In this document: one piece after another, positions 11,296-58,890 of the stretch
Layout: each line of letters opens with the position of its first letter
How positions within the stretch are numbered: the first letter of the stretch is position 1
Source: Muribaculaceae bacterium
GTDB taxonomy: Bacteria; Bacteroidota; Bacteroidia; Bacteroidales; Muribaculaceae
NCBI GenBank assembly: GCA_017405965.1
Contig: JAFQZK010000025.1
Span: 61,170-125,169, forward strand
DNA length: 64,000 bases
Direction: 5' to 3'
The notes under the pieces: generated by a model
What the model was told of the DNA's origin: nothing
What the model saw: only the letters and a program-made list of their open reading frames with translations
The model's database searches: none
Program-made: the position numbers and the translations under genes

Positions 11296-13413
11296 TTAAG
11301 AACCAAGAATAATATCGACCACAGCATTCACATCGGCGATGTTCACCTCACCGTCACCGTTCACGTCAAATGATTCGTCACCTCCCATGCCGCTCAGGAT
11401 AATGTCGATCACTGCATTCACGTCGGCAATGTTCACCTCGCCGTCACCGTTCACGTCACCGTTCACGGCCACGTCATCCAAAATGATGATATTATCAAAC
11501 AGTGTCCATATATCGGCACAATAGTAATCGTCGAACGATATCTCGGGCACAATCAAAGTCGTTGATGAATAACAATTGCTGGGGAAGGTCTCCTCGCTGT
11601 CCACCACCGGGGGAAGTTCGGGATACATCTTCAAGCGGCTCAGCGACCGGCAACCGACAAAGGCATTCGGTCCTATCGAGTCCACACGCAGGCCCACCGT
11701 CACGTCTTGCAGTGATATGCAATTCGAGAACAATTCCCTGCCGATTACCCTCAGGTTGTTACCGATGACCACCTCACTCAACTTGCGGCAGTTGGCAAAT
11801 GCCCTGTCGGCTATCTCTTCCACACCGTTCCCGGTAGTCAATCGCGTCATAGCGCTGCAATTCATGAAGGCACCTTCATCGATACGCTTCATGCTCGACG
11901 GTAATGCCAGTTGACTCAACAGGCTGCAACCGTAGAAGGCATAGTAGCCGATTTTCTCCACGCGGCGTCCCATGGTCACCGTACTCATCAGTCTGCAATT
12001 CAAGAAGGCGAAGTCAGCAATCTCGGTCACCCCGTCAGGGATGTTGATAGCCCTCAGCGCGGTACAATCCTTGAAGGCGTATTTGCCGATGCGCTTGATT
12101 GTCGGCGGCAAGGTGACAGTCCTCAATGAGGTGCAGTTCTTGAAGGCTCCGTCGGCGATGGCAGTGACAGGATAGGTCACACCTTGGCTGGTCACCTCAC
12201 TGGGGATGACGAGATTGCCACTGTAGGAACCGTATCGCCTTTCACGCGTGGTAACCGTGGCTTCATGGCCATTCAACTTGTAGCACACGCCATCTACATC
12301 GATGTCCCAAAGGGGAACATCCTCGGCTGGGTACAGCCTGTACAGCATCGACTGACCATAGGAGAATGACATGCCGGCAACATCAAAGGCGTCCAGTAAA
12401 AAATAGTCATTATAGTTGCCTTCCCAGCCCCAATTGATATGGAAGAGCATGCCGATACAACCATCCACGACATAGGCATGACCGCCCCCTTCACCAGAAC
12501 CGCAATACAGGATGGGACGGCCCTGAGTCAAATCCTCGTGCATCATGGCCAACCATTCCAGGGTTTCATAGTCGTCGCGGTGAAGGAACCGCATCGCCTG
12601 GTTATAACCGAGCAGCATCATGGCCGAATACTGATTCCAAGTGCCGGATCCGCTGCCGTCGGTGCCATACTCCATCGAGGACGCCTGGCCGCAATAGCGC
12701 ATCAGCGTGGCGACCGCCATGCCCTGAGCAGGCGTGTAAGGCATGGTATAGCCGTCACACATCTCGGCCCAGTCGACGGGGGTTGCGGGCAAAGCAGGGA
12801 GAAAAATATGATAAAAACCGGTTGTATAGGCAGGAAGATCGGGCAACACATCAGGATAACGCCAGTAATACATCACCTGGGCCATCGCGGTAGCGACACA
12901 GCCCGTCACGCAACGCACGCCCTTGTCGAACGGGCACAGGTTATAGTAGGGTGCACTCTGTGACCAGGTACAGGTCAACAGCGGTGAAACGACAACGACC
13001 TCGTTAGCGTCACGAGGTTTCACGCGGGCATCAGGATGGGTTTGCAGCCACTCCATCTGCTCCTTGTAGTGGGACAGGAGGCCTCGCATATTGCAGGGTA
13101 CGGTCTCGGGATCAAACTGCCCGTCGCCAAAGCCCAAAACGCTTTCGGCACGGTCATCGCCTGCCAAAATCACATAACTGTCATCGGCATTAAAGATGTA
13201 GTATGCGGGCATGTCTTGAATTCCCTTTTCCACTTGGACCAACTGCAACACCGAGGCTGCCGGTGCTGCCTTGAGATGACCCTGTGCGACTTGACGGTTC
13301 AAGAACTGCGAGGCACACTGGGCTGCCGTGGCCTCATCAACAGGGGCTGCCCATGCCGACAACTGTGCCATGGCCACAACTATCATTATAAGAATGGGTA
13401 ATCGTTTCATCAT
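11296..13413 (-). CDS. C10 (streptopain/SpeB-like) cysteine peptidase, then BspA-type leucine-rich repeats, then a tandem dockerin-type-I-like repeat
   Basis: Signal peptide MMKRLPILIMIVVAMAQLSAWA. Catalytic Cys in CVTGCVATAMAQVMYYWRYP, His in GGGHAYVVDGC, then HINWGWEG. About 8 LRR_5-type repeats (FKNCTSLRTVTLP..IKRIGKYAFKDCTALRAINIP...). The C-terminus is GDVNGDGEVNIADVNAVIDIILSG...FDVNGDGEVNIADVNAVVDIILGS (nt 11296-11460). Confidence 0.85.
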   Translation of the reverse strand: MMKRLPILIMIVVAMAQLSAWAAPVDEATAAQCASQFLNRQVAQGHLKAAPAASVLQLVQVEKGIQDMPAYYIFNADDSYVILAGDDRAESVLGFGDGQFDPETVPCNMRGLLSHYKEQMEWLQTHPDARVKPRDANEVVVVSPLLTCTWSQSAPYYNLCPFDKGVRCVTGCVATAMAQVMYYWRYPDVLPDLPAYTTGFYHIFLPALPATPVDWAEMCDGYTMPYTPAQGMAVATLMRYCGQASSMEYGTDGSGSGTWNQYSAMMLLGYNQAMRFLHRDDYETLEWLAMMHEDLTQGRPILYCGSGEGGGHAYVVDGCIGMLFHINWGWEGNYNDYFLLDAFDVAGMSFSYGQSMLYRLYPAEDVPLWDIDVDGVCYKLNGHEATVTTRERRYGSYSGNLVIPSEVTSQGVTYPVTAIADGAFKNCTSLRTVTLPPTIKRIGKYAFKDCTALRAINIPDGVTEIADFAFLNCRLMSTVTMGRRVEKIGYYAFYGCSLLSQLALPSSMKRIDEGAFMNCSAMTRLTTGNGVEEIADRAFANCRKLSEVVIGNNLRVIGRELFSNCISLQDVTVGLRVDSIGPNAFVGCRSLSRLKMYPELPPVVDSEETFPSNCYSSTTLIVPEISFDDYYCADIWTLFDNIIILDDVAVNGDVNGDGEVNIADVNAVIDIILSGMGGDESFDVNGDGEVNIADVNAVVDIILGS

Positions 13414-13476
13414 ATCCTCACATTTTTAAGTGCTACAAAAATACAAAATAATCTTTTTAAAGTCAATAAATAATGA

Positions 13477-13887
13477 CTAAAAATCATAATACCTGATCTT
13501 GACATCCTTACGAATCACAGTTCCTGTCATACAGGCACGGTGCAACGTCGCGATACAGAAGAAATACTTGTAGGCCTCAGGGTGCTCATCGCGATAACGG
13601 TAATAAATCCTGTCACACACTTGCACCACCTCCTTGTCATTGCCGTCAAGGGTGCGCTTGGAATAAACCGCCTTGATCGAGTCCTTCATGATTCGGGTGA
13701 TGACGTATGCCATATCGTCCTTGGACACCGGATAATAATCGGGCGGCTTGCTGGCGATGGTGAAGTAATAATCGATCTTAGGGTCAGGAGTATCGTCCTC
13801 ACACGAGCCTAACAACGATGACAGGATAACGATCGCGACAGAGACCAACGCGAGCCTCAATAGCTTGAAATATGATTGCTTTTCCAT
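13477..13887 (-). CDS. Small lipoprotein of unknown function immediately upstream of the C10 peptidase
   Basis: ATG at 13887. Lipobox LLGSC. 136 aa with a mixed alpha/beta prediction. Same strand as the peptidase, 63 bp upstream of its start. Confidence 0.55.
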   Translation of the reverse strand: MEKQSYFKLLRLALVSVAIVILSSLLGSCEDDTPDPKIDYYFTIASKPPDYYPVSKDDMAYVITRIMKDSIKAVYSKRTLDGNDKEVVQVCDRIYYRYRDEHPEAYKYFFCIATLHRACMTGTVIRKDVKIRYYDF

Positions 13888-14414: not shown

Positions 14415-16151
14415 TCATTTCCCTGACAAAATGATATTGATTAGGGCATTGACATCGCTGATGTTCACCTCGCCGTCGTCATCCACATCGAACACTTCGT
14501 CGCTCATGGCGCCCGATTTCAAGATGGCATCGATCAAGGCGTTCACGTCGCTGATGTTCACCTCGCCGTCACGGTTCACGTCACCCTTCTGATAGATGGG
14601 GGTTTGCGCTTTCATGAACCAGAAACCGGCCACCTGAGCCTGGGCGTCGACGGTCATCTCGGTTATGGGCTTGTTCATGTAGCCACCGGTATAGACCATG
14701 GCAGGGGGTGTCGAGTTGTTGGTGAGCGAGTCAAGACTGCCCTGGGGCCACAAGTCATACTTGTTTGAACCGTCCGACAACTGGTTGTCGGCAGGGATGA
14801 GCGTCATGCGCTGGTGGTTGCTGCTGTTGTTGGGGGTATTGTCATCCCAAGCCTTCTTGTCATAATCCACATGCAGGATCATGATGCCCTCGGCCGACAG
14901 GAATGCGTCCCATCCGGTCTTGACACGATATTCCAGCAGGTAGTACTCATCAGGGTTGGCATCGTTGGTCACCTTGACGGCGGTGCCGCCATCGGTGTTG
15001 AGCGGAGCCATGCTGTAATAGCTGTTCTCCTCGGCATCGATGAGGTCCATCCAACCCATGAAGTGACGCTCATAGGAAGTGTAGCCTGCCGGACGATGGC
15101 CGTTGTTCAGGTAACAGCCGTTGTCCATGATGTCCCAACTGCTCATGCCATAGGCGTAGCTGTTGTTGGTCGGATAGAAATCGGGCAGACCCAGACAATG
15201 ACCAAACTCGTGGCAGAAGGTACCCACACCGTCGATATTCGTGCTGGTGTTGTTGCTGCCTTCCAACTCGTTGAACACGGCAAACCGGTCGATGGTCACC
15301 CCGTTGAGTTGGAACGGTCCAATGGTGCTGCAACCCCAATCGTGGGCTTCTTTCATATCCCACTGGCAGGGCCACACGCTCTCGGGCACCGTGCGCCAAG
15401 CCTGAGATTCACCCACACCGGCATAGAGCACGACCACAACATCGACAAGGCCGTCGCCGTCGTTGTCATAGTTGGAGAAATCCACATTCCCTGAAATGCC
15501 CATGCAAGCGTCGTAAATCATGGTACCCAACTGGGTATCAAGTTCCTGACCGTAGCGATAGACGTTGGCACCATAGAAAGCGCGGGTCTGCGGCAACTGC
15601 ACCGGGCCCAGGATGTCGAAGCGCGGCGAGAATTTTCCGCGTGACTGCGACTCGAAGTAGTGCAGACAGCTGTACTCCTTCTCATTGAACTGGTTCTGGA
15701 AGGTTGACAGCGGGTTCTCGTCAATGAACTGGACATCGGTGTAATTCACAAGGATGATAGGGATGCGCGGGGAACCCAGTGTAGGCACCTGCGGCGAGTC
15801 GTTCTCGTCGGTGCGGCGCGGCATGCGGCTGGCGCCTGCGCCCAGCGTCATCTGTTGACGATAGGCTGTGACAAAGGCTTGCTCTTCAATGCCACGGTTA
15901 CCCTTGTCATGGGCACGCACATCGCTCAACGAGCCACCGACCGTGTAGCAGTAGTCACCGTTCAGGGCCCGGGCGACCGTCAGTCCGTCAAGCGTCATCA
16001 GCGAGTGGTTGAACTCCCCACCCCGCATCTCCAGCGTCACCGTCGTGCCGTCGCTCTGCACATGGGTAAAGGGAATAGATTTGGCGGGTACTGCCCAGGC
16101 CATGCTCGAGCATACCACAGCCGTCAGAAATATCAATAAGAATCTTTTCAT
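14415..16151 (-). CDS. M6-family-like (immune inhibitor A-like) zinc metallopeptidase with tandem dockerin-type-I-like repeat
   Basis: Signal peptide MKRFLLIFLTAVVCSSMAWA. Zincin motif HEFGHCLGLPDFY. The C-terminus is GDVNRDGEVNISDVNALIDAILKSG...FDVDDDGEVNISDVNALINIILSGK (nt 14415-14585). Confidence 0.8.
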   Translation of the reverse strand: MKRFLLIFLTAVVCSSMAWAVPAKSIPFTHVQSDGTTVTLEMRGGEFNHSLMTLDGLTVARALNGDYCYTVGGSLSDVRAHDKGNRGIEEQAFVTAYRQQMTLGAGASRMPRRTDENDSPQVPTLGSPRIPIILVNYTDVQFIDENPLSTFQNQFNEKEYSCLHYFESQSRGKFSPRFDILGPVQLPQTRAFYGANVYRYGQELDTQLGTMIYDACMGISGNVDFSNYDNDGDGLVDVVVVLYAGVGESQAWRTVPESVWPCQWDMKEAHDWGCSTIGPFQLNGVTIDRFAVFNELEGSNNTSTNIDGVGTFCHEFGHCLGLPDFYPTNNSYAYGMSSWDIMDNGCYLNNGHRPAGYTSYERHFMGWMDLIDAEENSYYSMAPLNTDGGTAVKVTNDANPDEYYLLEYRVKTGWDAFLSAEGIMILHVDYDKKAWDDNTPNNSSNHQRMTLIPADNQLSDGSNKYDLWPQGSLDSLTNNSTPPAMVYTGGYMNKPITEMTVDAQAQVAGFWFMKAQTPIYQKGDVNRDGEVNISDVNALIDAILKSGAMSDEVFDVDDDGEVNISDVNALINIILSGK

Positions 16152-16163
16152 CTCCAGTAATTA

Positions 16164-27449: not shown

Positions 27450-27499
27450 CGTGTTTTTCAAAAAAAATTTTCATCTTTGTGCAACTTTTTTGATGGCAT
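27450..27499 (+). repeat. 50-bp direct repeat, copy 1 (cgtgtttttcaaaaaaaattttcatctttgtgcaacttttttgatggcat)
   Basis: Identical to 28402-28451. The two copies bracket the RAYT cassette. Confidence 0.9.
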
Positions 27500-27698
27500 A
27501 TTATCAAAAATGGATATTGAAAATGCCTGGCGAGATTGCCTTGAAGAGGCAGACGGGTCGAAGACCCGGATTCAATGGGAAAACACCATGCAAGACCCTC
27601 GCAGAGGGTCGCCGCTTGGTGCCATGGCGACGCAAAGGAAAGTGCGTCGAAGACGAACTTCTTCACACTCCAGGATTGCTGCATCGAGAGTTTTGCGT

Positions 27699-27734: not shown

Positions 27735-28178
27735 ATGAGTGCTGTCAGTGCTATGTATCATGTCGTCATCAATACTTATCGCCGTCAAATGACCATTCCC
27801 GATGAGACGAGCGAACATCTTTATCGTTACATCTGGTCAATTGTCAAGAGCCGTGGCTGCCGTCTGTATCGCATCAACGGTATCGGGAATCATATTCACA
27901 TGCTCATTGAACTGGCTCCAACCGTTGCGTTGAGCGACCTTGTGCGTGACATCAAACAAGGCAGCAGCAAATGGGCAAAGCAACAAGTCTATTTCCCGCA
28001 ATTCAGCGGTTGGGGAAAGGAGTATGGGGCTTTCTCTTGCAGCTGTCGTGATAAGGACAGGATTGTCAATTACATCATCAATCAACGAGAGCACCACAAG
28101 GTGAGTTCATTTGAGGAGGAGTTTAGACAAATGCTTGAGTTATCGGGAATCGAATGGAACGATAAGCGCCTGACATAA
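27735..28178 (+). CDS. IS200/IS605-family Y1 (HUH) transposase-like protein, RAYT type
   Basis: 147 aa. YHVVINTYRRQ, HUH motif GNHIHMLIE, and catalytic-Tyr region RIVNYIINQREHH. Confidence 0.8.
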   Translation: MSAVSAMYHVVINTYRRQMTIPDETSEHLYRYIWSIVKSRGCRLYRINGIGNHIHMLIELAPTVALSDLVRDIKQGSSKWAKQQVYFPQFSGWGKEYGAFSCSCRDKDRIVNYIINQREHHKVSSFEEEFRQMLELSGIEWNDKRLT

Positions 28179-28401
28179 TAAGAGTTAGCAGTTGAAGTTC
28201 CTCTTCGAGGCACTTGCTTGCCGACATGGCCGTCACCAAGCTGCGTGGGTCTTCGACCCACTTGCATGGTGTTTTCCAACAAAGTCGGGTCTACGACCCG
28301 CCAGGCCTCTTCAAGGCCAGCCATTCGTAATAAATACGTTGCTAACAACCACCTTAGTGATAAATTACTTCTGCAGATCAGGCTATTTCAAGTCATCGAG
28401 C

Positions 28402-35061: not shown

Positions 35062-35091
35062 AAAACCAGAAATGATTTGCTCTCTTTGCTG

Positions 35092-42889: not shown

Positions 42890-44326
42890 ATGAAAATCAA
42901 GCTAGACCTCAAAAACAAAGCCCATCGACAGCGCATCAAGTATGTGGTGAGCGACTTTGTGATGTCCAACCTGGCTTGGTTTGTCTACTATATCGTGCGC
43001 TACAAGATGGGCACCGTGGTGGGTTGGCCCTATCTTGTGAGTTACCTCAAGAGCGACATGGTGCTGCTCGGTCAGCTGTTGTTCCCGCTGATCATGATGG
43101 TTACCTACATCTTCAGCGGCTATTACAACAATGTTTGCCGCAAGTCACGGGTTCAGGAGTTGCTCACGACGGTGGCCAGTTCGGGCATCAATACACTGAT
43201 CATCTTCTTCATCGCCCTTATCAACGACGTTATCGGCGTCAGGGTCAACGACTACGAGATGATTTTCATCCTGTGGGGCCTGCTCTTCGGCTTCGTCTAT
43301 TTGGGGAGAGCCATTATCACCAATCGGGCCTCCAGCGCCATCAAGTCGCGGCGTTGGACCTTCCCCACGCTCATCATCGGCAGCGGGTCGGCAGCCGTGA
43401 ACTTCGCCAACAAGGAGAACAGTCGCCGCGAATCGGCAGGCTATGAATTCATGGGATTTGTCAACATCCCCGGCGAGAACCCCGTCAAGGGCAATCCTCT
43501 GCCCTGCTACGAACTCGACGAACTCAAGGAAGTGTGCGAGCGTGAAAACATCTGGGAACTCATCGTCATGCCCACTCGCGACGACACCCAGCAGACAATG
43601 AACGCCCTCAACAAACTCTTCAGCCTGGGCCTGCCCATCATGATTTCGCCCGAGTATTTCAACAAGATGCAGACTCCTGTCCTTATCTCGGACATCTACG
43701 GCGAGCCCCTGGTGAACATCTCGCGCAGCAGCATGAGCGACAGCGGCAAGAACCTCAAGCGAGCCATCGATATCATCGTCTCGCTGGCGGCGCTGATCGT
43801 GCTCACCCCGCTCTATGCCATCGTCTCGATTATCATCAAGAGCACCAGTCCCGGCCCCGTGCTGTACAAGCAGGAGCGCGTCGGACTCCACAACAAGCCC
43901 TTCAAAATCATCAAGTTCCGCTCGATGGTACAGGATGCCGAGAGAAACGGGCAACCGCAGTTGTCGTCGGACAACGACCCCCGCATCACACCTTTCGGCC
44001 GGTTCATGCGCAAATACCGCATCGATGAGCTGCCCCAGTTCTGGAACGTACTCAAGGGCGAGATGTCGATTGTGGGCCCCCGCCCCGAGCGCAAGTACTA
44101 TGTGGAGCAAATCCTGCAGCGTGTTCCCGCCTACGCATTGCTGCATCAAGTCAGACCCGGCATCACATCGATGGGCATGGTCAAGTTCGGATATGCCAAG
44201 AACGTCGATGAGATGGTGGAGCGTGTCAAGTATGACCTGATGTACCTGAAGAACATGTCGTTGCTCAACGACATTAAGATTCTTATCTATACAATCAAAA
44301 TCGTCTTCACCGGACGCGGAGTGTGA
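42890..44326 (+). CDS. Polyprenyl-phosphate hexose-1-phosphate transferase (bacterial sugar transferase, WbaP/WcaJ-like)
   Basis: N-terminal TM bundle. C-terminal PGPVLYKQERVGLHNKPFKIIKFRSM...DPRITPFGRFMRKYRIDELPQFWNVLKGEMSIVGPRP. Confidence 0.85.
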   Translation: MKIKLDLKNKAHRQRIKYVVSDFVMSNLAWFVYYIVRYKMGTVVGWPYLVSYLKSDMVLLGQLLFPLIMMVTYIFSGYYNNVCRKSRVQELLTTVASSGINTLIIFFIALINDVIGVRVNDYEMIFILWGLLFGFVYLGRAIITNRASSAIKSRRWTFPTLIIGSGSAAVNFANKENSRRESAGYEFMGFVNIPGENPVKGNPLPCYELDELKEVCERENIWELIVMPTRDDTQQTMNALNKLFSLGLPIMISPEYFNKMQTPVLISDIYGEPLVNISRSSMSDSGKNLKRAIDIIVSLAALIVLTPLYAIVSIIIKSTSPGPVLYKQERVGLHNKPFKIIKFRSMVQDAERNGQPQLSSDNDPRITPFGRFMRKYRIDELPQFWNVLKGEMSIVGPRPERKYYVEQILQRVPAYALLHQVRPGITSMGMVKFGYAKNVDEMVERVKYDLMYLKNMSLLNDIKILIYTIKIVFTGRGV

Positions 44327-49149: not shown

Positions 49150-52100
49150 TCAATCAAGCACCAGAAGTCGGTTGGTATTGACAGCATTAGGCTTGGGTGC
49201 ATTGATGCTGCTGGATACCAGGTTGATCATTGCGGTAATGTCCGAGATGTTGATTTCGCCATCACCATTAACGTCGCCACAGATCGGGCAAACCTCACCA
49301 TTGGAAACCACAGCATTGATAATGGCAGTCACATCCGAGATGTTGATGGCACCGTCGTGGTTCACGTCGCCACGCTCGTAGCCATGACCGTTCTCGAACA
49401 GAGTTACCTCCTCGACATTGCTCCAGTCGCTCTCGGTGCCATCCTGGTACAGAGCCTTAACCCTGTAGAGGAAGGTGCCCTCGGCCGTAAGGTCGTTCAC
49501 GATGTAGTTCTTGTTGGAGATACCCTCGATCAAGCGATAGTTGGCATCGCCGGTCTCGGTAGCGTTGAGCTTGGCAGTTGCAGTAATGTCACCGGGATAA
49601 ACCGTAATGCTCTCGATAGCGATGTAGTTGGCACGAGCTTGTACTCTTACCTGATCGCTGGACGAGCAGTTCAAGACGACAGTGATGGTCTGGAATTCAT
49701 CGTCATCGCTCGAACCGAGGGTGTAGTTCTGGTAAGCCGAATTGGTGGCAATGCGAACCTGGCCCACACCATAATTGGAAGGATAGTAAGACTTCACGTT
49801 AACCACTACAGTCACCTTGTCATAACCGGTAAGGTCAAGCGTCGGGCTTATAATAGAACCATAGGTCGTCTGTGACCACCAACCGGAGCCTGTCGTTGCG
49901 CCGGTGATAACAAAGCCGTCGTTGATGTAGAGATAGTTCTCGGCCGTCCAGCCCTCGGGCAGGTATTGCGAAGCCGTGCTGGCGCAGTTGGGCAACTGAT
50001 TATTATCGTTGGTTACAGCCTCGATTCCGGTGAGGTCGCAAACACTGACGGGATCAGGAGTCACGGGCTCGGCGGGCTTAGCCGATACCTCGAGGGTGTA
50101 GCTGGTCACGTTGTTGTCGGGTGTCTCGTCGGTCCATTCAGCACAGAATCTGGTCAAGTTGATGTAGCTCTCATTGGCGGGCAGCATCACGGGAGCATAC
50201 TTCACGAGGTCGGCCTGGCCGTTGAGTGTTACGGTAACGGGCTGAGCATTGGGGCTGGTGAGGGTCACAGTTCCCGTGTGGATGCCGAATGCCGTCGGCG
50301 TGTAGGTCACGTTGACAGTAGCATTTTCAGCCTCACCCGATACGATCTCGGTCTTGTCGATGGTGAAGCCCTCGCCCTCAACTGCCAACGACACGTTACC
50401 CTCGAGGAAGGCGCTGTTCACAACAAACGACTTGGTGACAGGTGTACCAACGGTGGTGACAAAGTCGAGAGTCGTGGGATTAGCGGTAATGGTGGGAGTC
50501 GTGGTTGCGATACCGCTGAGCGTAACAGTAACGGGCTGTGCACCATTGCTGGTCAGAGTGACAGTGCCCGTAGAAGAGCCGCCAGTGGTGGGACGATAAG
50601 TCACGGTAACCTCTGCACCTTCGGCAGCAGCGGCCCTGGTAATGTTAGTCTTGTTGATTGAGAAGCCATTGCCCGTAACGGCCAGCGAAACATTAGCGGT
50701 CAAGTCGGTTCCTGTCACGGTAAATGTCTTGGTCACCTCATCGCCGACATTAGCGTTGAACGACAGTGACCTGGGATTAGCAGCCAATGTGGGAACGCCA
50801 ACGGCTGTACCACTGAGTGCCACGGTAACATCTTGTGCACCGTTGCACTTCAGCACAACATTGCCGTTGTAGGTGCCACTGGCTGTGGGATTGAAAGTAA
50901 CGGTAACCGTTACAGTTTTACCATTGACAGCGTTTCGGGTGAGGTTGGTCTTGTCGATAGTGAAACCGTTGCCGTTGCACGACAGGTAAACCATGCTTCC
51001 TGAAGTCAGGTTGGAACCGGTCACGTCGAAGGTCTGGGTTACAGGAGTGCCAACAGTGGTTGAGAGATTCAACGACGTGGGATTAACCGTCAACTTGGGC
51101 ACCGTGGTGGAAGTACCTGTGAGGCTGACGGTCTTGCTCTCGGCATTACTGCTGCTCACGGTAATCGAACCGCTCTGAGTGCCGGCAGCCGTGGGAGCAT
51201 AGGTCACTGTGATCTGGGCACCAGCCTGAGCCTGGGCAGCCGTCAGAGTAGTGGGAGATACACTGTAAACCGCGCTGCCGCTCTTGGTAATGGTGACATT
51301 ACCCTGCAGATTGGAACCAGTTACAGTGAAGGTCTTGGTATAAGTCTCACCAGTGTTGCCGGTAAATGACAACGAGGTGGGAGATACACTCAATTCAGGA
51401 ACGGTAGGAGCACCACCGGGGGGCTGGATGCCCACGATAGCCTGCTGTTGAGAGCTGAAGGTGTAACCGCCGTAGGTGAATGAGTTCATCGCATACCAGC
51501 TGTTACCATCACCACTCCAACCGAAGTTCACGTGGTACTTGCCATCGCTGTCACGATAACCATCCACGTTGAAGGCGTGACCGCCACCCTGGGTGTCAAC
51601 ACCCAGATAAACAACGGGACGGCCTGCAGCCATCTCATTCTGAATCAAAGCGCCCCAGTTTGCCTCGCTATAAGACGACTTGTTGGCCAATCGGGTGTTG
51701 GAATCATAACCCAAAGTCTTGAACATGGTAGCAATGATCTGTGAGTTGGTGGTGTAGATACCACTGCCACCGGCAGCTTCTGTACCATACATCATTTTCT
51801 CGAGCTGACCCACATACCGCATCAGCGTGGCCACGGCATTGGACTGAGTTGAGTTGTAACTGGTGTAAGTATCCTTCATGTTTGCCCAGTCAAAGGTAGT
51901 GGCAGCCACCGAAGGATAAGTGAAGTTTACACTCTGATAATATGATAATTCAAGGGCAGCAGTGTAAGAGGCTACTGCAGGAACCTGAGTGGTCGGGTAC
52001 TTCCAGTAGTACAGCACCATCGATGCCGAAGTTGCAGGGCAACCAGTCAAGCACTGGTATGCCTTATTGTTATAGGTGAAAATGCACTGACTCCAGTACG

Positions 52101-52572
52101 GTGCTTCCTGGTCCCATTTCGCCGTGAGCAGCGGGCCATAGGTCACAGCACGCAACTTGGGGGTCAATGACTGTGAAGGTTTCTCGACCTGAATGTTGGG
52201 GTGATTATGAAGGTACTCGATTTCTCCCTTGTACTGGTCGAGCACGGCCTGCATCGACGGTGCCAGATGGTTGATGTCCTTCAACGGCTCATCACCAATC
52301 ATGAGGATTTCCTCGGCACGGTCGTCACCTGCCACAACCAGGAAGGTGGACGAGGTGTTGAAGATATAATACACAGGCTTATTCAGCTTGGTATCGCCGA
52401 TCTCGGTCTTAAGCAAGACGGGCTTTAAAGCTGAGGGAGCCATCATTTTACCTGCATACATTTGATTCAGGTAACTTTGAGCTGTTCGCTGGGCCGTTGC
52501 CATATCTACAGGTGCGGCCGACAGCGACAATGCCGCAAAAGCGACAGTCAACAATAGCAAAAATCTTTTCAT
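49150..52572 (-). CDS. C10 (streptopain-like) cysteine peptidase with ~4 tandem Ig-like (choice-of-anchor-D-like) repeats, FN3/jelly-roll-like modules and a tandem dockerin-type-I-like repeat
   Basis: ATG at 52572 (MKRFLLLLTVAFAALSLSA; the track start at 52578 is a TTG). Cys in CLTGCPATSASMVLYYWKYP, His in GGGHAFNVDGY, then HVNFGWSGDG. Repeats resemble PxLxVxPTSLxF...TFTVTGSNL...VTVTYxPTxxG. The C-terminus is GDVNHDGAINISDVTAIINAVVSNGEVCPICGDVNGDGEINISDITAMINLV (nt 49150-49371). Confidence 0.85.
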   Translation of the reverse strand: MKRFLLLLTVAFAALSLSAAPVDMATAQRTAQSYLNQMYAGKMMAPSALKPVLLKTEIGDTKLNKPVYYIFNTSSTFLVVAGDDRAEEILMIGDEPLKDINHLAPSMQAVLDQYKGEIEYLHNHPNIQVEKPSQSLTPKLRAVTYGPLLTAKWDQEAPYWSQCIFTYNNKAYQCLTGCPATSASMVLYYWKYPTTQVPAVASYTAALELSYYQSVNFTYPSVAATTFDWANMKDTYTSYNSTQSNAVATLMRYVGQLEKMMYGTEAAGGSGIYTTNSQIIATMFKTLGYDSNTRLANKSSYSEANWGALIQNEMAAGRPVVYLGVDTQGGGHAFNVDGYRDSDGKYHVNFGWSGDGNSWYAMNSFTYGGYTFSSQQQAIVGIQPPGGAPTVPELSVSPTSLSFTGNTGETYTKTFTVTGSNLQGNVTITKSGSAVYSVSPTTLTAAQAQAGAQITVTYAPTAAGTQSGSITVSSSNAESKTVSLTGTSTTVPKLTVNPTSLNLSTTVGTPVTQTFDVTGSNLTSGSMVYLSCNGNGFTIDKTNLTRNAVNGKTVTVTVTFNPTASGTYNGNVVLKCNGAQDVTVALSGTAVGVPTLAANPRSLSFNANVGDEVTKTFTVTGTDLTANVSLAVTGNGFSINKTNITRAAAAEGAEVTVTYRPTTGGSSTGTVTLTSNGAQPVTVTLSGIATTTPTITANPTTLDFVTTVGTPVTKSFVVNSAFLEGNVSLAVEGEGFTIDKTEIVSGEAENATVNVTYTPTAFGIHTGTVTLTSPNAQPVTVTLNGQADLVKYAPVMLPANESYINLTRFCAEWTDETPDNNVTSYTLEVSAKPAEPVTPDPVSVCDLTGIEAVTNDNNQLPNCASTASQYLPEGWTAENYLYINDGFVITGATTGSGWWSQTTYGSIISPTLDLTGYDKVTVVVNVKSYYPSNYGVGQVRIATNSAYQNYTLGSSDDDEFQTITVVLNCSSSDQVRVQARANYIAIESITVYPGDITATAKLNATETGDANYRLIEGISNKNYIVNDLTAEGTFLYRVKALYQDGTESDWSNVEEVTLFENGHGYERGDVNHDGAINISDVTAIINAVVSNGEVCPICGDVNGDGEINISDITAMINLVSSSINAPKPNAVNTNRLLVLD

Positions 52573-52960
52573 AATCAAATAATGGTAATTAATTACAGTA
52601 TAGAATCTGGTTTATGTTCCGACCGACAAAAATACAATACCCAATCGGAAATAACAAATTATTTCTTCTTATTTATCAATAATTTACAATAAAAGACGAC
52701 ATACCGTAACAAGCACCCCAAAAATCGGTAAGAGGGCGGCTTCATCGACTGATGCCGCCCAGGCAAACTCTTCTTCAACCGCACATGGCCAACAAACTCA
52801 GCCATTCCTGCAAAACGATAAAATAAGTCGCTTTTTTCAGCGACTTATTTTATTATTACATCACTTTGCGTGCTAATACCAATTATGGTGAGAATTAAGG
52901 CTGTTATCGCATCTTTTCAAGCCCTGACATCTCTATTCGGGCTCTCAGGAACAGCTGAGT

Positions 52961-54040
52961 TCAAAAGAATTGGACGCAGACGGGTTTGCTGAGCGGTATG
53001 TCCTGATGAGTGTCGGTGAGGAGTCCCGTATTATTGTCGCGCCGGAACACTTGGATCTTGTTGCTGTCGCGGCAGCAGCATAGCAGGAAACGGCCGTTGG
53101 GCGTGATGTTGAACTGGCGGGGATGGGCTGCTGTGGGTTGGTAGCCGATGCGCGTGAGCAGCCCTGTCTGGCTGTCGACGGCAAAGATGGCGATGCCCTC
53201 GGTTTTCAGCCGATTGCTGGAATAAAGGTATCGGCCGTCGGGGCTCAGGTGTATATCTGCACCGCCTCGAGCGCCCACGCTGTCCGAGACGATTTCCTGC
53301 AGCTTCTCTAACCTCCCCTCGTGATAGGCGAATACCGTCACCTGGCCCGATAGTTCGCTCATCAGATAGGCAAACCGGCCATCGGTGCTGAACGTCAGGT
53401 GACGTGGTCCGGAATCGGCGCTGACATGGGCGGCCACGCCGTTGGCTATCACATCTTGTCCCTCGATGCGGAACGACAGGATGCGGTCGGCACTGAAGTC
53501 CGTGGCCAGCACATATCTCCCGTCGGGCGTGAAACACGCGCAGTGAACGTGGGGACTTTGTTGCCGTGAAGGGTCGGGACCTCCCGTTGCTCCGAGGATT
53601 TTCGTGGCAAGTTCGGCAAGCGTTCCGCATTGTTTCAGCCGGAACACGCTCATCGAGCCCCCCGAGTAATTGGCGGTGAGGGCGAGATCGTCATTGACGG
53701 CCACGTAGCACGGGTCTTCGCCCTCGGTCGGTGCCGTATCAATAAGACGCATGCCACCGTTCTTTGTTATTCTGATGATGTTCAGCGAAGCCTGGTCGTC
53801 ATGCGTCTCACTGACTACATATATCAGCCGCTGGTCGCGAGATATGGTCAAATAGGACGGATTCCTCATTTCCAGAGAATCCAAAAGCTCGGCTTCACCG
53901 GTCTCCTGATCGAACCGATAGGAATAGACGCCCCTGCTGCCGCCGTCGGTGTAGGTCCCTACAAACATCATTTCCACCTCTTGAGCCTGCATCACACAGA
54001 TACTTGACAAAAGCATGATCAATACACTCTTCAGTTTCAT
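52961..54040 (-). CDS. Lactonase-family 7-bladed beta-propeller protein (6-phosphogluconolactonase-like)
   Basis: Signal peptide, then MFVGTYTDGGSRGVYSYRFDQETGE, NPSYLTIS, GEDPCYVAV and GPRHLTFS repeats typical of PF10282-type lactonases. Confidence 0.75.
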   Translation of the reverse strand: MKLKSVLIMLLSSICVMQAQEVEMMFVGTYTDGGSRGVYSYRFDQETGEAELLDSLEMRNPSYLTISRDQRLIYVVSETHDDQASLNIIRITKNGGMRLIDTAPTEGEDPCYVAVNDDLALTANYSGGSMSVFRLKQCGTLAELATKILGATGGPDPSRQQSPHVHCACFTPDGRYVLATDFSADRILSFRIEGQDVIANGVAAHVSADSGPRHLTFSTDGRFAYLMSELSGQVTVFAYHEGRLEKLQEIVSDSVGARGGADIHLSPDGRYLYSSNRLKTEGIAIFAVDSQTGLLTRIGYQPTAAHPRQFNITPNGRFLLCCCRDSNKIQVFRRDNNTGLLTDTHQDIPLSKPVCVQFF

Positions 54041-54056
54041 ATCGTTTTCTTTAATC

Positions 54057-54764
54057 TTATTGCTCTAACTTCCAACCATGATCGCCATGGTAAATCATCT
54101 GGCGCGTCATGCCGCCGTCGATGCAGATATTCTCACCCGTGATGAAGCCTGCTTTGTCGGAACACAGGTACAACACCATGTTGGCGATATCCATGGGATT
54201 TCCCACACGACCTGCTGGCTGCTGAATGGCATCGGGGCCCTCATAGACAGTATAGGCCGTGTCTATCCAGCCCGGGGAAATGCTGTTCACCCGTACCTTG
54301 CCGGCTAGGCTGACGGCCAGCGCATGGGTCAGTGCGGCAATACCGCCCTTGGCAGCAGCGTAGCTCTCGGTCTGAGGCTGACTCATGCGGTCACGCGAGG
54401 AGGAAATGTTCACGATGGCAGCCCCCTGGGCAAAAAAGGGAGTGAAGAGTTTGCACAGATAGAACGGGGCCGTAACGCCAACGCTCAACGCATACTGGAA
54501 CTCCTCGTAACTGCACTCGTCGATGCCTTTCATCAGTGGCAGGGCGTTATTGACAAGGTAGTCAACCCGGCCATACTCCTTGATGACCGTGTCGGCAAAT
54601 CGCTCCAAAACCTGCTTGTCGGCGATATCACCCACAAAGTGATTCCCCTGCTGCTTGTCAATCACGCAGACGTGTGCGCCAGCCTTCTGAAACTCATCGG
54701 CGATGCAACGCCCTATTCCCTGTGCCCCTCCTGTCACGACGACAACTTTATCCTTGAAATCCAT
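54057..54764 (-). CDS. SDR-family oxidoreductase
   Basis: VVVTGGAQGIG cofactor motif and catalytic YAAAKGG (YxxxK). 235 aa. Confidence 0.85.
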   Translation of the reverse strand: MDFKDKVVVVTGGAQGIGRCIADEFQKAGAHVCVIDKQQGNHFVGDIADKQVLERFADTVIKEYGRVDYLVNNALPLMKGIDECSYEEFQYALSVGVTAPFYLCKLFTPFFAQGAAIVNISSSRDRMSQPQTESYAAAKGGIAALTHALAVSLAGKVRVNSISPGWIDTAYTVYEGPDAIQQPAGRVGNPMDIANMVLYLCSDKAGFITGENICIDGGMTRQMIYHGDHGWKLEQ

Positions 54765-55057
54765 TTTTGAAATGATTTAAATCCTTTACTCTGTCTTTTC
54801 AACCAACATTGATGAAAAACCATCCTTATTGCAGGAACAAATATAGCAATAATTTGTAATCACACCTCGCAGATTCATGTTTTTCTGAATGTTGCCCAAC
54901 CATTATTATCCAAAAAGGTCATTGCGGGTGTGACACCCCAATTTACCGGCAACTGCAAAGGTCGGTAAAAACACAAGAGAGGCGCCCCAGACCGGGACGC
55001 CCCTCTATTTCAGTATTCATGCGGCAGACCGCCAAAACGATCTGTCAGGAACAGTCA

Positions 55058-58000
55058 TTAAAACGCCACGAGTCGGCTGAAGTTAACGGCTTTATTGGGC
55101 TTAGATGCATTAGTGCTGGTGGCCACCATGTTGATCATCGCGGTAACATCCGAGATGTTGACATTTCCATCGCCATTGATGTCGGCGCAGATCGGGCAAA
55201 CCTCACCATTGGAAACCACGGCATTGATCACGGCAGTCACATCAGAGATGTTGACAGCACCGTCGTGGTTAACGTCACCAAGCTGATAGCCATGGCCGTT
55301 ATCGAACAGGGTTACCTCCTCGACATTACTCCAGTCGCTCTCGGTGCCATCCTGGTACAGAGTCTTAACCCTGTAGAGGTAGGTACCCTCGGCAGTCAGA
55401 TTCTCAACGGTGTAGAACTTGTCGGTGATGCCAGTGATCAGACGGCTGTTCTCATCGCCGGTCTCCTGGGCAAGGAGCATGGAGTAGGTTGCATTGATGT
55501 CGCCAGCATAGATCTTGATGTCCTCGATGGCGAACAAGTTCTCAACACCCTCAAATACCACCTGATCGCTCTCGGCAACATCGAGCACCACGGTATAGGT
55601 GTTGAAGTCATCGGTAGCAAGAGCTACTTCCTGAGAGCCGGCACTGGTCTTCACGCGGATAGTTGCTGTGCCATAGTAGCTTGAATAGTAGGAATAAGCA
55701 CTCATCACAACGGTCACCTTGTCATAGCCGGTGAAGTCATAGGTCTTGGTGGTGATACCGCAGGCATTGTTGCTCAGGTAGCCCGAGATAATGAATCCGT
55801 CGTTCACCCAGAGACCGGTCTGTGCCGTCCAACCGGTGGGCAGATAGTTGCTGGCCGAGCTGGCAACATTGGTCAGCTGACCACTCGAGTTCTCGGCAGC
55901 AGCCAGGCTAGTGAAGTCGGCGTCCTCAAGCAGGACGGGATCGAGAATTACGGGAGTTTCGGGCTTGAGCGTCACCTCGAGGGTGTAGCTTTCCACGTTA
56001 GCCTCGGGGGTAGCATCGGTCCAGTCGGCACGGAACTTGGTCAGGTTGATGAACTGCTCGTTGGCAGGCAGCATCACGGGAGCAAACTTCAACAGATTAC
56101 CAGTACCGTTCAGGGCGACTGTCACATCCTCGGCACCAGCGCTGGTCAGCGTGATAGTGGCATTGTCAGTGCCAAGAGCCGTCGGGGTATAGGTAACAGT
56201 AACATCCACGCCGTTCATGGCTTCGGCGGCGGTGATGGTCGTCGGCTCGATGCTGTAAACGCCATTCTCGTCGTTCAATGCCAGATTCACATCGCCGGTA
56301 AGGTTGGAACCACTGACATTGAAGGTGGCAGTTACGCTCTCGCCCACTCCGGCAACCATATCCAAAGCTGACGGATTCACTACGATGGTGGGATCGCTGT
56401 TCTCCAGGAGGGTCACTTGCTTAACTTCGCTGTCAGCGACACCGCCATTGATATAGTTGGCGACAACATAGAAGTTGAACGTGCCGGCCTCGGTGAGACC
56501 AGTAACGGTGTAGCTCTTGCTGGTGATACCGGTAATCACACGATAAGTGGCGTCACCGGTTTCGCTGGCCTTGAGCTGATTTGTAGCGGTGGGATCACCG
56601 GCATAAATCTTCACATACCTCATGTCGGGCATACCCGAGGTGGTAATCTTTACACGGTCGCTGCTGTTGCAATTCAGAACGAAGGTGTACCAGCTGAACG
56701 AGTTACCAGACAGGTTAACGGTCTTGGTCTGGGCGTTGGTAGCCACAGTCATGGTGTTGTTGGACTGGTAGGGCTCAGAGTAAACCATCACGGTCACCTT
56801 GTCATAACCGGTGAGATCGTAGGTTGCAGTCTGCACATAGGACGAGCTGCTTGATGACAAGTAGGCGGCACTATTGGAGCTATAATAGGTCAGACCGTTC
56901 TGCGACCATCCGGAAGGAATAGCGGCCGAAGAAGTCCAGTCAACAGAGTCGATCAGCGCATAGGGGGGCAAGAACGGCTTGTCGCTCACATAGAGGGTGT
57001 AGCTCTCCACGTTTGCGGCAGGAGTCTCGTCGGTCCAGCTAGCGGTGAACGAGGTGGAGGTGATGTTGCTGGCGTCGAGCAATACGGGCTCGTAGGTCTC
57101 GAGGTCGGCGGTACCATTGATCTTGAGCGTCACGGTCTCGGCACCAGTGCTGGTCAAGGTGACAGTGGCCTCGTGGGAACCGAATGTTGCAGGATTATAG
57201 GTAACAGTTACAGTAGCTTGGTTCTCGGCCTGAGTTGCACTGACACTGGTGGTGCTCAGTGAGAAGGCATTGCTGCCGCTGAGGCTCAAGTTCACATTGT
57301 CGGTGAGGTTGGCACCCTTAACGGTGAAGGTTGCAGTGACAGCATTGCCCACAATGGTGTTCATCATGAGCGAGGTGGGGTTAACCGTGATCCTGGGATC
57401 GGTGAGAGCACCTGCGGGGGGCTCAATACCGATAATCATGGCCTCGCCATAGTTGAAGACATAAGAACCAGACTGGCCGGTTGCACCGGTAGCGGTGGTG
57501 AAGTTGTGCAGCGTGCAATAGCCGTTGCTGTCGCCGCTCCAGCCCCAGTTCACATAGTACTGACCGCTGGTGTTGCAGCCAAACACGTTGAAGGCGTGGC
57601 CCGAAACGCTATAGCCGCTGACGTCATAGGCCAGGTACTCGATGGGACGGCCGTTGTACAGCTCGTTCAACATATATTCGTTCCACTGGGCGTCGGTATA
57701 CTGCTGCGGGCCATTGGTGTAGGTCCAACCCGAAGACTGAAGCTCGGTGAGCAGGAGGTACTGGGCATCGGTGTAACCCATGTTGAGGCAGCCCTGGTAG
57801 ATCTCAGGGTCGTTGGCACCACTGGCACTGGTGCTGTACTGGTAATCGGGAATTGCCTGGCCGGCATAGCGCATCAGCCATGCCACAGCATCGGCCTGGG
57901 CCGATGTGTAGTTGTAATTGGTCGGTCCGGTATATTCGTCGATGATGTTATCCCAATCGGCTTGGCGCTCGGGCAGAGCAGCAGCACTGAGGCCGCCGGT

Positions 58001-58588
58001 ACCCGAAAGCGCTGCTACAGCGGGATAGGTCTCAGGCCATCTCCACTTGTAGTAGCACATGGACAGCGATGTGGCCGGGCAACCGGTAACAGCATGACTG
58101 CCGCCGCTGGACGGGCACTGGTTATTATAAGGAGCGCTCTGGTCCCAGTTGGCGTTTACCAGGGGAGGAACGGCCGTTGTCGCAAACTTGGGCAGCTTCA
58201 CAGGCACCATGGTTCCGGCCTTGAGACCGTCAATCTGATATTTGTACTTGTTGAGCAACCACTGCATGCCGGGAGGAACGTTGTTCATGTCGAGAGCACC
58301 TTCCTCACCGTACATCAGAACCTGGGGTGCCAGGTCATCACCGGCAATCACTACATAGGATTTCTCGGTGTTGAAGATGTAGTAGTCCACAGCACTGGGC
58401 CTGGCTACCGACTTTTCAGCCTTGACAAGCTGAAGGTTGGAAGCAGCGGAGGCTTTAAGACGACCTGAGGTCACTTGTTTCCTGAGAAACGCGTTGGCAG
58501 CGGCCTGAGCCTGTGACGTGGTCACATCGGCGGCCGACAGAGACAATGTCGCAAAAGCGACAGTCATCAAAAGCAAGAATTTTTTCAT
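55058..58588 (-). CDS. C10 (streptopain-like) cysteine peptidase paralog with two copies of an Ig-like/FN3/jelly-roll module set and a tandem dockerin-type-I-like repeat
   Basis: ATG at 58588 (MKKFLLLMTVAFATLSLSA; the track start at 58594 is a TTG). Cys in AVTGCPATSLSMCYYKWRWP, His in SGHAFNVFGC, then YVNWGWSGDS. The C-terminus is GDVNHDGAVNISDVTAVINAVVSNGEVCPICADINGDGNVNISDVTAMINMV (nt 55058-55279). Confidence 0.85.
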   Translation of the reverse strand: MKKFLLLMTVAFATLSLSAADVTTSQAQAAANAFLRKQVTSGRLKASAASNLQLVKAEKSVARPSAVDYYIFNTEKSYVVIAGDDLAPQVLMYGEEGALDMNNVPPGMQWLLNKYKYQIDGLKAGTMVPVKLPKFATTAVPPLVNANWDQSAPYNNQCPSSGGSHAVTGCPATSLSMCYYKWRWPETYPAVAALSGTGGLSAAALPERQADWDNIIDEYTGPTNYNYTSAQADAVAWLMRYAGQAIPDYQYSTSASGANDPEIYQGCLNMGYTDAQYLLLTELQSSGWTYTNGPQQYTDAQWNEYMLNELYNGRPIEYLAYDVSGYSVSGHAFNVFGCNTSGQYYVNWGWSGDSNGYCTLHNFTTATGATGQSGSYVFNYGEAMIIGIEPPAGALTDPRITVNPTSLMMNTIVGNAVTATFTVKGANLTDNVNLSLSGSNAFSLSTTSVSATQAENQATVTVTYNPATFGSHEATVTLTSTGAETVTLKINGTADLETYEPVLLDASNITSTSFTASWTDETPAANVESYTLYVSDKPFLPPYALIDSVDWTSSAAIPSGWSQNGLTYYSSNSAAYLSSSSSSYVQTATYDLTGYDKVTVMVYSEPYQSNNTMTVATNAQTKTVNLSGNSFSWYTFVLNCNSSDRVKITTSGMPDMRYVKIYAGDPTATNQLKASETGDATYRVITGITSKSYTVTGLTEAGTFNFYVVANYINGGVADSEVKQVTLLENSDPTIVVNPSALDMVAGVGESVTATFNVSGSNLTGDVNLALNDENGVYSIEPTTITAAEAMNGVDVTVTYTPTALGTDNATITLTSAGAEDVTVALNGTGNLLKFAPVMLPANEQFINLTKFRADWTDATPEANVESYTLEVTLKPETPVILDPVLLEDADFTSLAAAENSSGQLTNVASSASNYLPTGWTAQTGLWVNDGFIISGYLSNNACGITTKTYDFTGYDKVTVVMSAYSYYSSYYGTATIRVKTSAGSQEVALATDDFNTYTVVLDVAESDQVVFEGVENLFAIEDIKIYAGDINATYSMLLAQETGDENSRLITGITDKFYTVENLTAEGTYLYRVKTLYQDGTESDWSNVEEVTLFDNGHGYQLGDVNHDGAVNISDVTAVINAVVSNGEVCPICADINGDGNVNISDVTAMINMVATSTNASKPNKAVNFSRLVAF

Positions 58589-58890
58589 AAGCAAAAAATG
58601 GTAATTAATTACAATATAAAATAGTTGGTATTTTGGCCTATGTTTGGACTGGCAAATTTACAACACTTCACCGTAAATGGCAAATTATTTCTTTTTATTT
58701 ATCAATATTTTTCAACAAATGATGACAGGACAAAACACCCGGTAGACCCCATATTTAGAGAATAAATTAATGTAAACAATTACCTATCAGCTACTTCTAT
58801 CGCACAATTAACTACATGACCAAAATTTCACTTACAAATCGAAACTTAGAATTTATAAGCTAATTGGTGTGCGATATGGAAGGTTTTGAG

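Follow-up and report, generated by a model that had tools for sequence, protein, structure and literature searches.

What is the role of "orphan" dockerins outside cellulosomes? The question is an old one. In Clostridium thermocellum and C. cellulolyticum, all dockerins have to fit one and the same cohesin, whichever way round they bind. Dockerins outside cellulosomes are catalogued across the three domains of life, and Peer et al. reportedly surveyed the non-cellulosomal cohesin and dockerin modules of archaea and bacteria in 2009. Among rumen metagenome dockerins, 8.8% were assigned to Bacteroidetes, a "Streptopain precursor/peptidase C10-DOC" was modelled and assigned to Prevotella, and all contigs with both a cohesin and a dockerin belonged to Firmicutes (Bensoussan et al. 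2016, PMC6487960). A study of Prevotella ERAC metagenome-assembled genomes (MAGs) says of the role of dockerins in Bacteroidetes that it "is not defined yet" (PMC7480376), dockerin-only MAGs have been noted (PMC9763041), and Bacteroidetes genomes are still said to lack cohesins and dockerins (PMC5831590). Ruminococcus albus and the R. bromii amylosome likewise present many dockerin enzymes with few or no recognizable cohesins (PMC6118326, PMC9763041). Here, we examine five dockerin-bearing secreted hydrolases encoded in a 64,000-nucleotide stretch of DNA (the window) from a Muribaculaceae bacterium (GenBank assembly GCA_017405965.1, contig JAFQZK010000025.1, positions 61,170 to 125,169), as an entry point to this question. 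Because rumen Bacteroidetes dockerins, including the C10-DOC type, were reported in 2016 (PMC6487960), the window proteins are not a new phenomenon; they are further members of a known, poorly understood class.

Five Secreted Hydrolases Carry Paired Dockerin Repeats

A preliminary description of the window had proposed that five secreted hydrolases of three unrelated catalytic classes share a C-terminal double repeat. All five open reading frames (ORFs) are present on the minus strand, where it placed them. The first (C10+LRR, 11296–13413) is a secreted C10 cysteine peptidase with an I69 prodomain, a C10 domain, BspA-type leucine-rich repeats (LRRs), and a C-terminal dockerin (Pfam: C10, 186 bits; LRR_5, 164 bits; Inhibitor_I69, 61 bits). 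The second (M6, 14415–16151) is a secreted M6-family metallopeptidase with an HEFGH motif (TIGR03296, 173.7 bits against a cut-off of 110.8; Peptidase_M6, 48.5 bits), and the third (GHL10, 24729–27404) is a secreted glycosyl-hydrolase-like 10 protein (GHL10, 205 bits); both also end in a dockerin. The remaining two, C10a (49150–52572) and C10b (55058–58588; C10, 118.6 bits), are large paralogous C10 peptidases in which a 19-residue tail follows the dockerin. Peptidase_C10 scores across the three C10 proteins are 186, 155, and 119 bits, each protein has the Inhibitor_I69 prodomain, and the C10, M6 (TIGR03296), and GHL10 bodies all exceed the curated cut-offs of their family hidden Markov models (HMMs), so the three class assignments hold.

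The architecture of C10a could be followed along a full-length AlphaFold model (mean pLDDT 81.4): an I69 prodomain, the C10 domain, four HYDIN/ASH-type Ig modules, FN3-like and beta-sandwich modules, the dockerin, and the tail. Its catalytic domain resembles prointerpain A (3BB7) and SpeB in Foldseek. The protein has 2560 database homologs; nearly all of the best 120 share the C10, Ig, and dockerin architecture, and those that carry a source name read "C10 family peptidase [Muribaculaceae bacterium]." The large C10-dockerin genes (49150–58594) are part of a syntenic island, bordered by fmt/PAP2/ClC on one side and by a CDF transporter on the other, and vary in copy number, with two copies in the window, separated by a lactonase and an SDR gene, and four tandem copies in a related species (L088:7316–18636; related loci are given L numbers throughout).

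Are the repeats genuine dockerins? All five proteins exceed the 22.9-bit gathering cut-off of Pfam Dockerin_1 (PF00404), with 31.1 (C10+LRR), 32.9 (M6), 39.5 (GHL10), 37.6 (C10a), and 39.8 bits (C10b); at E = 3e-7 to 5e-10, these profile matches lie far beyond chance as judged from sequence. A six-frame scan for Dx[ND]x[DN]..V...D returned exactly ten repeats in real ORFs, two per protein and within the regions described before. Translation and scan place the C10+LRR module at 11302–11457 (repeats DVNGDGEVNIADVNAVIDIILS and DVNGDGEVNIADVNAVVDIILG; pattern matches at 11332–11367 and 11422–11457), the M6 module at 14424–14582 (14454–14489 and 14547–14582), and the GHL10 module at 24747–24908 (24777–24812 and 24873–24908), the Ca loop of its second repeat (DCDSSKSINITD...) being partly degenerate. 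The C10a module lies at 49210–49368 (49240–49275 and 49333–49368) and the C10b module at 55118–55276 (55148–55183 and 55241–55276), all on the minus strand. An eleventh match (43211–43246) fell in an antisense ORF and was discarded as spurious. The repeats take the 22-residue form DVNGDGEVNI[AS]DV[NT]A[LVI]I[DN]xxL. Read directly, each of the ten consists of a 12-residue Ca loop (D/N at positions 1, 3, and 5; D at position 12) followed by a helix.

Solved structures and predicted folds agree with the profile matches. The best PDB sequence matches of the window modules are the type I dockerins of C. thermocellum CelS and Xyn10B (E = 5e-6). A Foldseek run with full-length C10a was dominated by Ig arrays and SpeB/interpain, and was uninformative on the dockerin, so an isolated module was run instead. 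The M6 module, modelled from a 35-sequence alignment (pLDDT 83.6), has two long helices (residues 25–37 and 56–68), and its top 33 matches in the PDB are all dockerins, with a Foldseek probability above 0.9 for the first 30 and of 1.00 for the top ones. Target-normalized TM-scores reach at most 0.82, the best being against the C. cellulolyticum dual-binding dockerin 2VN5; E-values are only 0.015–0.3 because the domain is small. The dockerin helices are also confident in the C10a model (1078–1089, 1096–1099, and 1109–1123). By HMM, by their match to solved C. thermocellum dockerins, and by predicted fold, the five modules are bona fide type-I-like dockerins, and the alternative that the repeats fold as part of a recognized type IX secretion system (T9SS) C-terminal domain (CTD) was not borne out. 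They would be expected to bind Ca2+.

The inter-repeat linkers of the two large C10 dockerins (49276–49302 and 55184–55210, minus strand) contain a CPIC motif. A CxxC motif (e.g., CPIC, CEIC, or CSIC) is conserved in the homologs P0033–P0152, and C1098 is nearly invariant across 81 sequences; the motif is missing from the other window dockerins. Its cysteines could hold the two repeats together through a disulfide or a metal site.

The Tag Is Widespread among Unrelated Secreted Proteins

Orthologs of the GHL10 protein, 71–87% identical and with the dockerin kept, occur in rumen MAGs labelled Muribaculaceae, Sodaliphilus sp., and, in older records, "uncultured Prevotellaceae RUGxxx," and ENA metagenome contigs encode the exact protein of window ORF 518–1738 with the same gene neighbors. 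Given these relatives, the window reads as a chromosomal stretch of a rumen Muribaculaceae that is Sodaliphilus-like. How general is the dockerin tag in this lineage? Database searches with the dockerin alone or with a dockerin profile returned mostly short fragments, and the census of architectures was therefore made on fetched loci. A dockerin HMM built from the five window modules was run on six-frame ORFs of the window and 80 related loci (1.63 Mb); the loci were fetched via the GHL10-dockerin gene family, so that all are neighborhoods of one gene family.

This census recovered 147 dockerin ORFs. In 115 of them the module is C-terminal, with a median of 2 residues beyond it, and in the other 32 it is N-terminal, directly after the signal peptide. 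The module is thus independent of position: the earlier picture of a C-terminal tag stands for the five window proteins and for 115/147, and does not hold as a rule. Besides the GHL10-type dockerin genes, we counted 4.9 dockerin ORFs per 100 kb, a density that is biased in that the loci are themselves dockerin neighborhoods.

The tagged bodies are diverse. Outside the GHL10 type, as set by a motif filter, there were 77 dockerin ORFs (some still match GHL10 in Pfam), 63 of which matched Dockerin_1 at E <= 1e-5; N-terminal copies in related loci score above the gathering cut-off. By Pfam, the bodies are FGE-sulfatase-like (17 of the 77), GHL10 (12), Cthe_2159 (11), C10 (4), Calycin-like (4), LRR_5 (3), CotH (3), Alpha-amylase (GH13; 2), Subtilase S8 (2), NAGPA (2), Endonuclease I (1), DUF285 (1), and Lcl_C (1), and several more have no Pfam match; at least 17 body families bear the tag. 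The cargo overlaps with the non-CAZyme (carbohydrate-active enzyme) dockerin proteins of Firmicutes in CotH, Cthe_2159, LRR, peptidase, and GH13 bodies. Use of the tag extends across the lineage and is not confined to proteases; the protease-centered set of the preliminary description has to be given up, since FGE-sulfatase-like, GHL10, Cthe_2159, CotH, GH13, NAGPA, and endonuclease I bodies carry the tag as well.

Several arrangements recur among these genes. N-terminal dockerins are found on FGE-sulfatase-like, Cthe_2159, CotH, and Lcl_C proteins (N-terminal examples are L038:14408–16390, L041:16545–18512, L013:12766–14706, L020:5728–7281, L011:3814–5751, and L056:12668–14266). An FGE-sulfatase-like gene is the conserved downstream neighbor of a GHL10-dockerin paralog in ~17 loci. 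Small proteins of 74–104 aa that consist of a signal peptide and a dockerin alone (P0258 at L084:10001–10291, P0175, and P0019) occur on up to 10 contigs; in L084, the ORF next after the small gene (362 aa) lacks both a Pfam match and an obvious signal peptide.

Repeat Symmetry, Within-Genome Likeness, and Selection

Do the modules look as though they answer to a common partner? We compared putative contact positions (10, 11, 14, 17, 18, 21, and 22), which are drawn from clostridial dockerins. In 96 C10 homologs, repeats 1 and 2 of one protein are 0.76 identical at these positions, against 0.51 for repeats of different proteins, and the observed value was reached in 0 of 2000 permutations. Between proteins, dockerin identity at variable positions is 0.578 for modules of the same locus on different families (n = 86), 0.406 for different loci and the same family, and 0.363 when both locus and family differ. 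These likenesses take the form of genome-specific dialects: VTAADVTALYDFLLN is common to five families in L026/L020, one copy being N-terminal, and another, VNISDVNALIDAIL, recurs in modules at either terminus of unrelated proteins from a single genome.

The likeness persists at the residue level in spite of divergence at the codon level. Window repeat pairs share 15–20 of 22 residues with 5–10 synonymous codon differences: the two C10+LRR repeats share 20/22 residues with 7 synonymous differences, C10+LRR repeat 1 and M6 repeat 2 share 17 with 9, and the two C10a repeats share 16 with 10. Recent gene conversion as the main cause of the similarity was rejected on account of these many synonymous differences. 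Residue identity despite them indicates that purifying selection maintains the similarity. Symmetric repeats, within-locus likeness across families, and residues conserved over synonymous change together bear out the notion of a common tag. Symmetry, coherence, and selection are also the pattern of cellulosomal species, and are what a shared binding partner would produce; as three independent signals read from sequences, they lend good, if indirect, support to a shared, genome-specific partner.

Short C-Termini in a T9SS-Bearing Organism

How might the tagged proteins be exported? After the second repeat, only 1 (C10+LRR), 2 (M6), or 5 (GHL10) residues remain, and 19 in each of C10a and C10b, in line with the short ends described before. 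The C10a tail (SINAPKPNAVNTNRLLVLD; 49153–49209, minus strand) is not a CTD: its last 17 residues (1124–1140) have pLDDT <50 and are predicted to be disordered, and in 120 C10a homologs, 0–25 residues follow repeat 2, without conservation. The idea that the 19 residues form a mini sorting domain was discarded on both counts. Por_Secre_tail/TIGR04183 was not found in the five proteins (Pfam and NCBIfam, E <= 0.1–1), nor was Por_Secre_tail found in the 39 other window ORFs (Pfam), and none of the five has the 70–100-residue C-terminal beta-sandwich (TIGR04183, PF18962, or TIGR04131) by which T9SS cargo is recognized. A CTD-like tail on other proteins of this clade escapes these HMMs, and the profile negatives are therefore weak evidence; what carries the argument is the shortness of the ends. 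With no space for one, and with the C10a tail predicted to be disordered, no folded C-terminal sorting domain of T9SS type follows the repeats in any of the five proteins, as had been proposed.

After some dockerins of different families comes a short tail whose last residues read [RYF]LL[VAT]x[DEKQ] (RLLVLD, RLLAD, RLLAK, RLLVVE, or FLLTAD). Its bearers are C10a (...NRLLVLD, 49153–49170, predicted to be disordered), P0035, P0037, P0040, P0041, P0080, P0093, P0105, and P0258.

The window also encodes, as described before, the T9SS outer membrane component PorQ (5423–6454, plus strand; NF033711, 362.9 bits against a cut-off of 220), and the organism therefore has a T9SS. Judged by eye and with a crude heuristic, each of the five signal peptides combines a K/R n-region with a hydrophobic core and an AxA-like site; the heuristic picked out all but that of C10+LRR, which was accepted on inspection. 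No canonical lipobox was seen in any of the five, and lipoprotein export was rejected on that ground. In sequence, then, the five look like signal peptidase I (SPI) substrates without lipobox or CTD in a T9SS-bearing organism.

A de novo comparison of C-termini in the related loci revealed a different shared ending, a ~45-residue element (..V.Y[FY]N..G......G[VI]N[IV]VVT.Y.DG.....K..) on mostly unrelated bodies: Cleaved_Adhesin/DUF2436, LRR_5, DUF5074, and a 1414-aa protein without a Pfam match. It occurs at L025:18283–22032(+), L025:17007–18275(+), L030:331–3402(+), L038:17577–19571(-), L041:20684–22546(-), L057:17403–19271(-), L066:13711–17952(-), L021:2498–3973(+), L024:2–4957(+), and L027:1–3852(+). 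The element looks like the last strands of a Porphyromonas gingivalis-type T9SS CTD; as it had no match in Pfam, NCBIfam, or a PDB profile search, we do not call it a CTD. LRR_5 bodies end either in a dockerin (window 11296–13413 and L045:6745–9411) or in this element (L025:18283–22032).

A Proposed Shared Receptor and Its Alternatives

What would explain so broad a tagged set? We lean, with little more than even confidence, toward the reading that the dockerins serve many kinds of Sec/SPI-exported proteins as a general docking tag, most likely through Ca-dependent binding to one species-specific receptor. A rumen Muribaculaceae lineage (Sodaliphilus-like) would tag a large, mixed secretome—peptidases of three classes, glycosidases, a nuclease, CotH, FGE-sulfatase-like, and LRR proteins—with dockerins. 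In each module, the two Ca-loop/helix repeats would form a small helical domain with two near-equivalent faces, and this would bind, in a Ca-dependent manner, one genome-encoded receptor particular to the species, a cohesin or cohesin-like beta-sandwich. Through this receptor, the tagged proteins would be collected or anchored at the cell envelope, conjecturally on the outer membrane surface or on outer membrane vesicles; a route across the outer membrane is something that we infer.

Several results weigh against this reading. A cellulosome-like assembly, as suggested in the preliminary description, would require a cohesin. As was also noted in that description, none is recognizable in the window: Pfam found no Cohesin (PF00963) in the 39 other window ORFs, and likewise none in the six-gene dockerin cluster of L026, within the 77 dockerin-bearing ORFs themselves, or in the Pfam-annotated flanks of related loci. 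A cohesin HMM run on six-frame ORFs of the 81 sequences (1.63 Mb, not a whole genome) found nothing below E = 0.7; it is narrow, having been built from three C. thermocellum cohesins taken from PDB alignments. The loci compared for likeness are neighborhoods of one gene family and not independent samples, local module shuffling could inflate the within-locus similarity, and the contact positions borrowed from clostridial dockerins may not be those of the modules here. With SPI signals and no recognized outer membrane export signal, the proteins might also remain in the periplasm. Besides these points, exact-sequence look-ups of the GHL10 protein and of a thioredoxin-like protein at the window edge matched no recorded contig, and the one extension obtained, beyond the left edge of the window, contained neither dockerin nor cohesin. 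In the C10a model, checked for a cohesin-like domain, the only modules were of Ig/FN3 type, apart from a single beta module of low confidence. Sequence models are reported to miss divergent cohesins (PMC13463774). Given such divergence, the narrow HMM, and the part-genome scope of the search, the receptor's existence and location remain matters that we infer.

A bolder version of the receptor reading, to which we give only a small chance, is that a diderm, T9SS-bearing lineage runs a cellulosome-like display of a broad secretome, in which dozens of SPI-exported proteins dock to a receptor that cohesin models miss. The receptor may then be a T9SS- or lipid-anchored carrier, with the tagged proteins hitch-hiking across the outer membrane in the folded state. 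A related proposal makes the dockerin itself the outer membrane export or sorting signal, or the recruiter of one, in place of the T9SS CTD; the replacement would be direct or would again work by hitch-hiking, the dockerin binding a CTD-bearing carrier in the periplasm and being co-translocated folded. It would suit an organism with PorQ whose five tagged proteins are all of SPI type with neither lipobox nor CTD, and a C10 catalytic domain that resembles interpain A: C10 relatives in Porphyromonas and Prevotella (PrtT and interpain A) are T9SS cargo with a CTD. The LRR_5 bodies with either ending further mean that the dockerin occupies the place of another terminal module in relatives. However, that other C-terminal element went unrecognized as a T9SS CTD by Pfam, NCBIfam, and PDB profile search, known T9SS signals are, to our knowledge, strictly C-terminal, and we know of no precedent for T9SS hitch-hiking. 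Because 32/147 modules are N-terminal and the fold is helical and EF-hand-like rather than a beta-sandwich, a C-terminal export-signal role is unlikely, and we hold the proposal as a whole to be improbable.

The dockerins could also lack a dedicated protein partner, as is suspected for many non-cellulosomal dockerins, and serve as Ca-dependent stabilizing or solubility domains or bind a nonprotein ligand such as lipopolysaccharide (LPS), capsule, or a plant or host glycan. The lack of a cohesin in the window ORFs, the related loci scanned, and the dockerin-bearing ORFs is what such orphans would leave, rumen MAG surveys commonly meet genomes with dockerins only (PMC9763041), and for Bacteroidetes the role is described as undefined (PMC7480376). 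If the function were structural or Ca-buffering, however, one would not predict that repeats co-vary at helix surface positions, nor that unrelated proteins carry genome-specific dialects under purifying selection, and we consider the orphan reading improbable as well. Very unlikely, in our estimate, is docking across species, in which released Muribaculaceae enzymes would bind the scaffoldin cohesins of rumen Firmicutes, e.g., Ruminococcus. The rumen habitat is common to both, clostridial type I dockerins are the nearest to those of the window, what was scanned revealed no self-encoded cohesin, and lateral dockerin transfer from Firmicutes to Bacteroidetes has been proposed (PMC6487960). However, such docking requires an unexplained release across the outer membrane, and the dialects differ between close Muribaculaceae genomes while being coherent within each, a pattern more in keeping with a self-encoded partner that co-evolves than with a handful of foreign cohesins.

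Gene Neighborhood of the Tagged Proteins

Pfam scans of the 39 other window ORFs identified housekeeping genes, a SusC/SusD pair, and several lipoproteins of no assigned function. The start of the window (518–1738, plus strand) falls within an N-glycan-type polysaccharide utilization locus, judging from the upstream sequence in L081:4236–9931, whose order is SusC/SusD, a GH18 of the BT1044/EndoS type, and then a lipoprotein with BT_3987-like_N and Laminin_G_3 domains. Next to it, a secreted protein of 364–374 aa (1830–2954, minus strand; signal peptide MRKIYVLMLFVVMAAATYAQ) corresponds to a 364-aa gene without a Pfam family in related contigs; the overlapping plus-strand ORF 1791–2960, which was the one scanned at 1830–2954, has no Pfam or NCBIfam match. 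A Ser/Thr protein kinase domain (Pkinase, 85.8 bits) and an AAA ATPase domain (118.9 bits) are joined in a single 615-aa ORF (8549–10396, plus strand), a gene model that recurs on two near-identical metagenome contigs of this locus.

Two lipoproteins (30478–31491 and 34018–35124, both minus strand) have no Pfam or NCBIfam match; their C-terminal regions (RF[LM]RW...HPDSQLT / RFLRWM.AHRD..N..L) resemble ORF C-termini in L013 and L007 and in L006, L012, and L014. Between the GHL10 gene and the next gene lies a 147-aa ORF like an IS200/IS605-type Y1 (HUH) transposase (27735–28178, plus strand; best PDB matches 2F4F and 2FYX, E = 6e-5). On either side of this ORF lie the copies of a perfect 50-nt direct repeat (27450–27499 / 28402–28451) and of an imperfect 44-nt inverted repeat (27578–27621 / 28234–28277).

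Comparison with Known Systems

The closest described modules are the clostridial type I dockerins (CelS, 1DAQ/2MTE; Xyn10B, 1OHZ/2CCL; C. cellulolyticum Cel5A, 2VN5). The window modules share with them the two 22-residue repeats of PF00404, the predicted fold (TM 0.6–0.8), the strong twofold internal symmetry of dual-binding-mode dockerins, and species-level coherence across many enzymes. Unlike the clostridial hosts, the host here is a diderm member of the Bacteroidota with a T9SS. In the DNA scanned here, no cohesin or scaffoldin was recognized, unlike in clostridial systems; the cargo is mostly not plant-cell-wall CAZymes, and about one module in four is N-terminal. At contact positions 10/11 and 17/18, where clostridial dockerins have S-T and K-R, the modules here have hydrophobic or acidic residues (I-S/A and I-D/N). 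A dockerin also assembles hydrolases outside cellulose degradation in the C. perfringens NagH/NagJ toxin complex (2OZN), which is among our fold matches; unlike here, its cohesin partner is known.

The T9SS C10 peptidases—interpain A of Prevotella intermedia and PrtT and periodontain of P. gingivalis—share with the window C10 proteins an I69-type prodomain and C10 domain, an SPI signal, and a T9SS-bearing host, and the C10a catalytic domain is 28–31% identical to interpain A (3BB7/3BBA; TM 0.69–0.79). T9SS C10 peptidases have a terminal beta-sandwich CTD, which is cleaved off to make way for an A-LPS anchor; the window proteins, in contrast, end in a dockerin and leave no room for a CTD. Among the dockerin-rich, cohesin-poor Firmicutes, GH13 amylase-dockerin fusions are a common feature with the lineage studied here. 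R. albus and R. bromii are monoderm with an exposed cell wall, whereas this lineage is diderm, and for R. bromii cohesins are known and interactions have been shown, whereas the modules here are known from sequence and predicted fold.

If the receptor exists, cohesin-dockerin logic would extend to a diderm envelope and to rumen protein and starch degradation, and it might reveal how CTD-less proteins leave a T9SS organism. If there is none, the lineage would caution against equating dockerin counts in MAG surveys with cellulosomes. The rumen Bacteroidetes dockerin proteins listed before and assigned to Prevotella or Bacteroides (PMC6487960, PMC7480376) share habitat, phylum, and a C10-DOC type with those described here, which belong to Muribaculaceae. 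Our analysis adds to them that assignment, how broadly and densely the tag is used, its placement at the N- or the C-terminus, repeat symmetry, within-genome coherence, and signatures of selection. The lineage offers an unusually dense and varied tagged set, with clear signs of selection for a shared, genome-specific partner.

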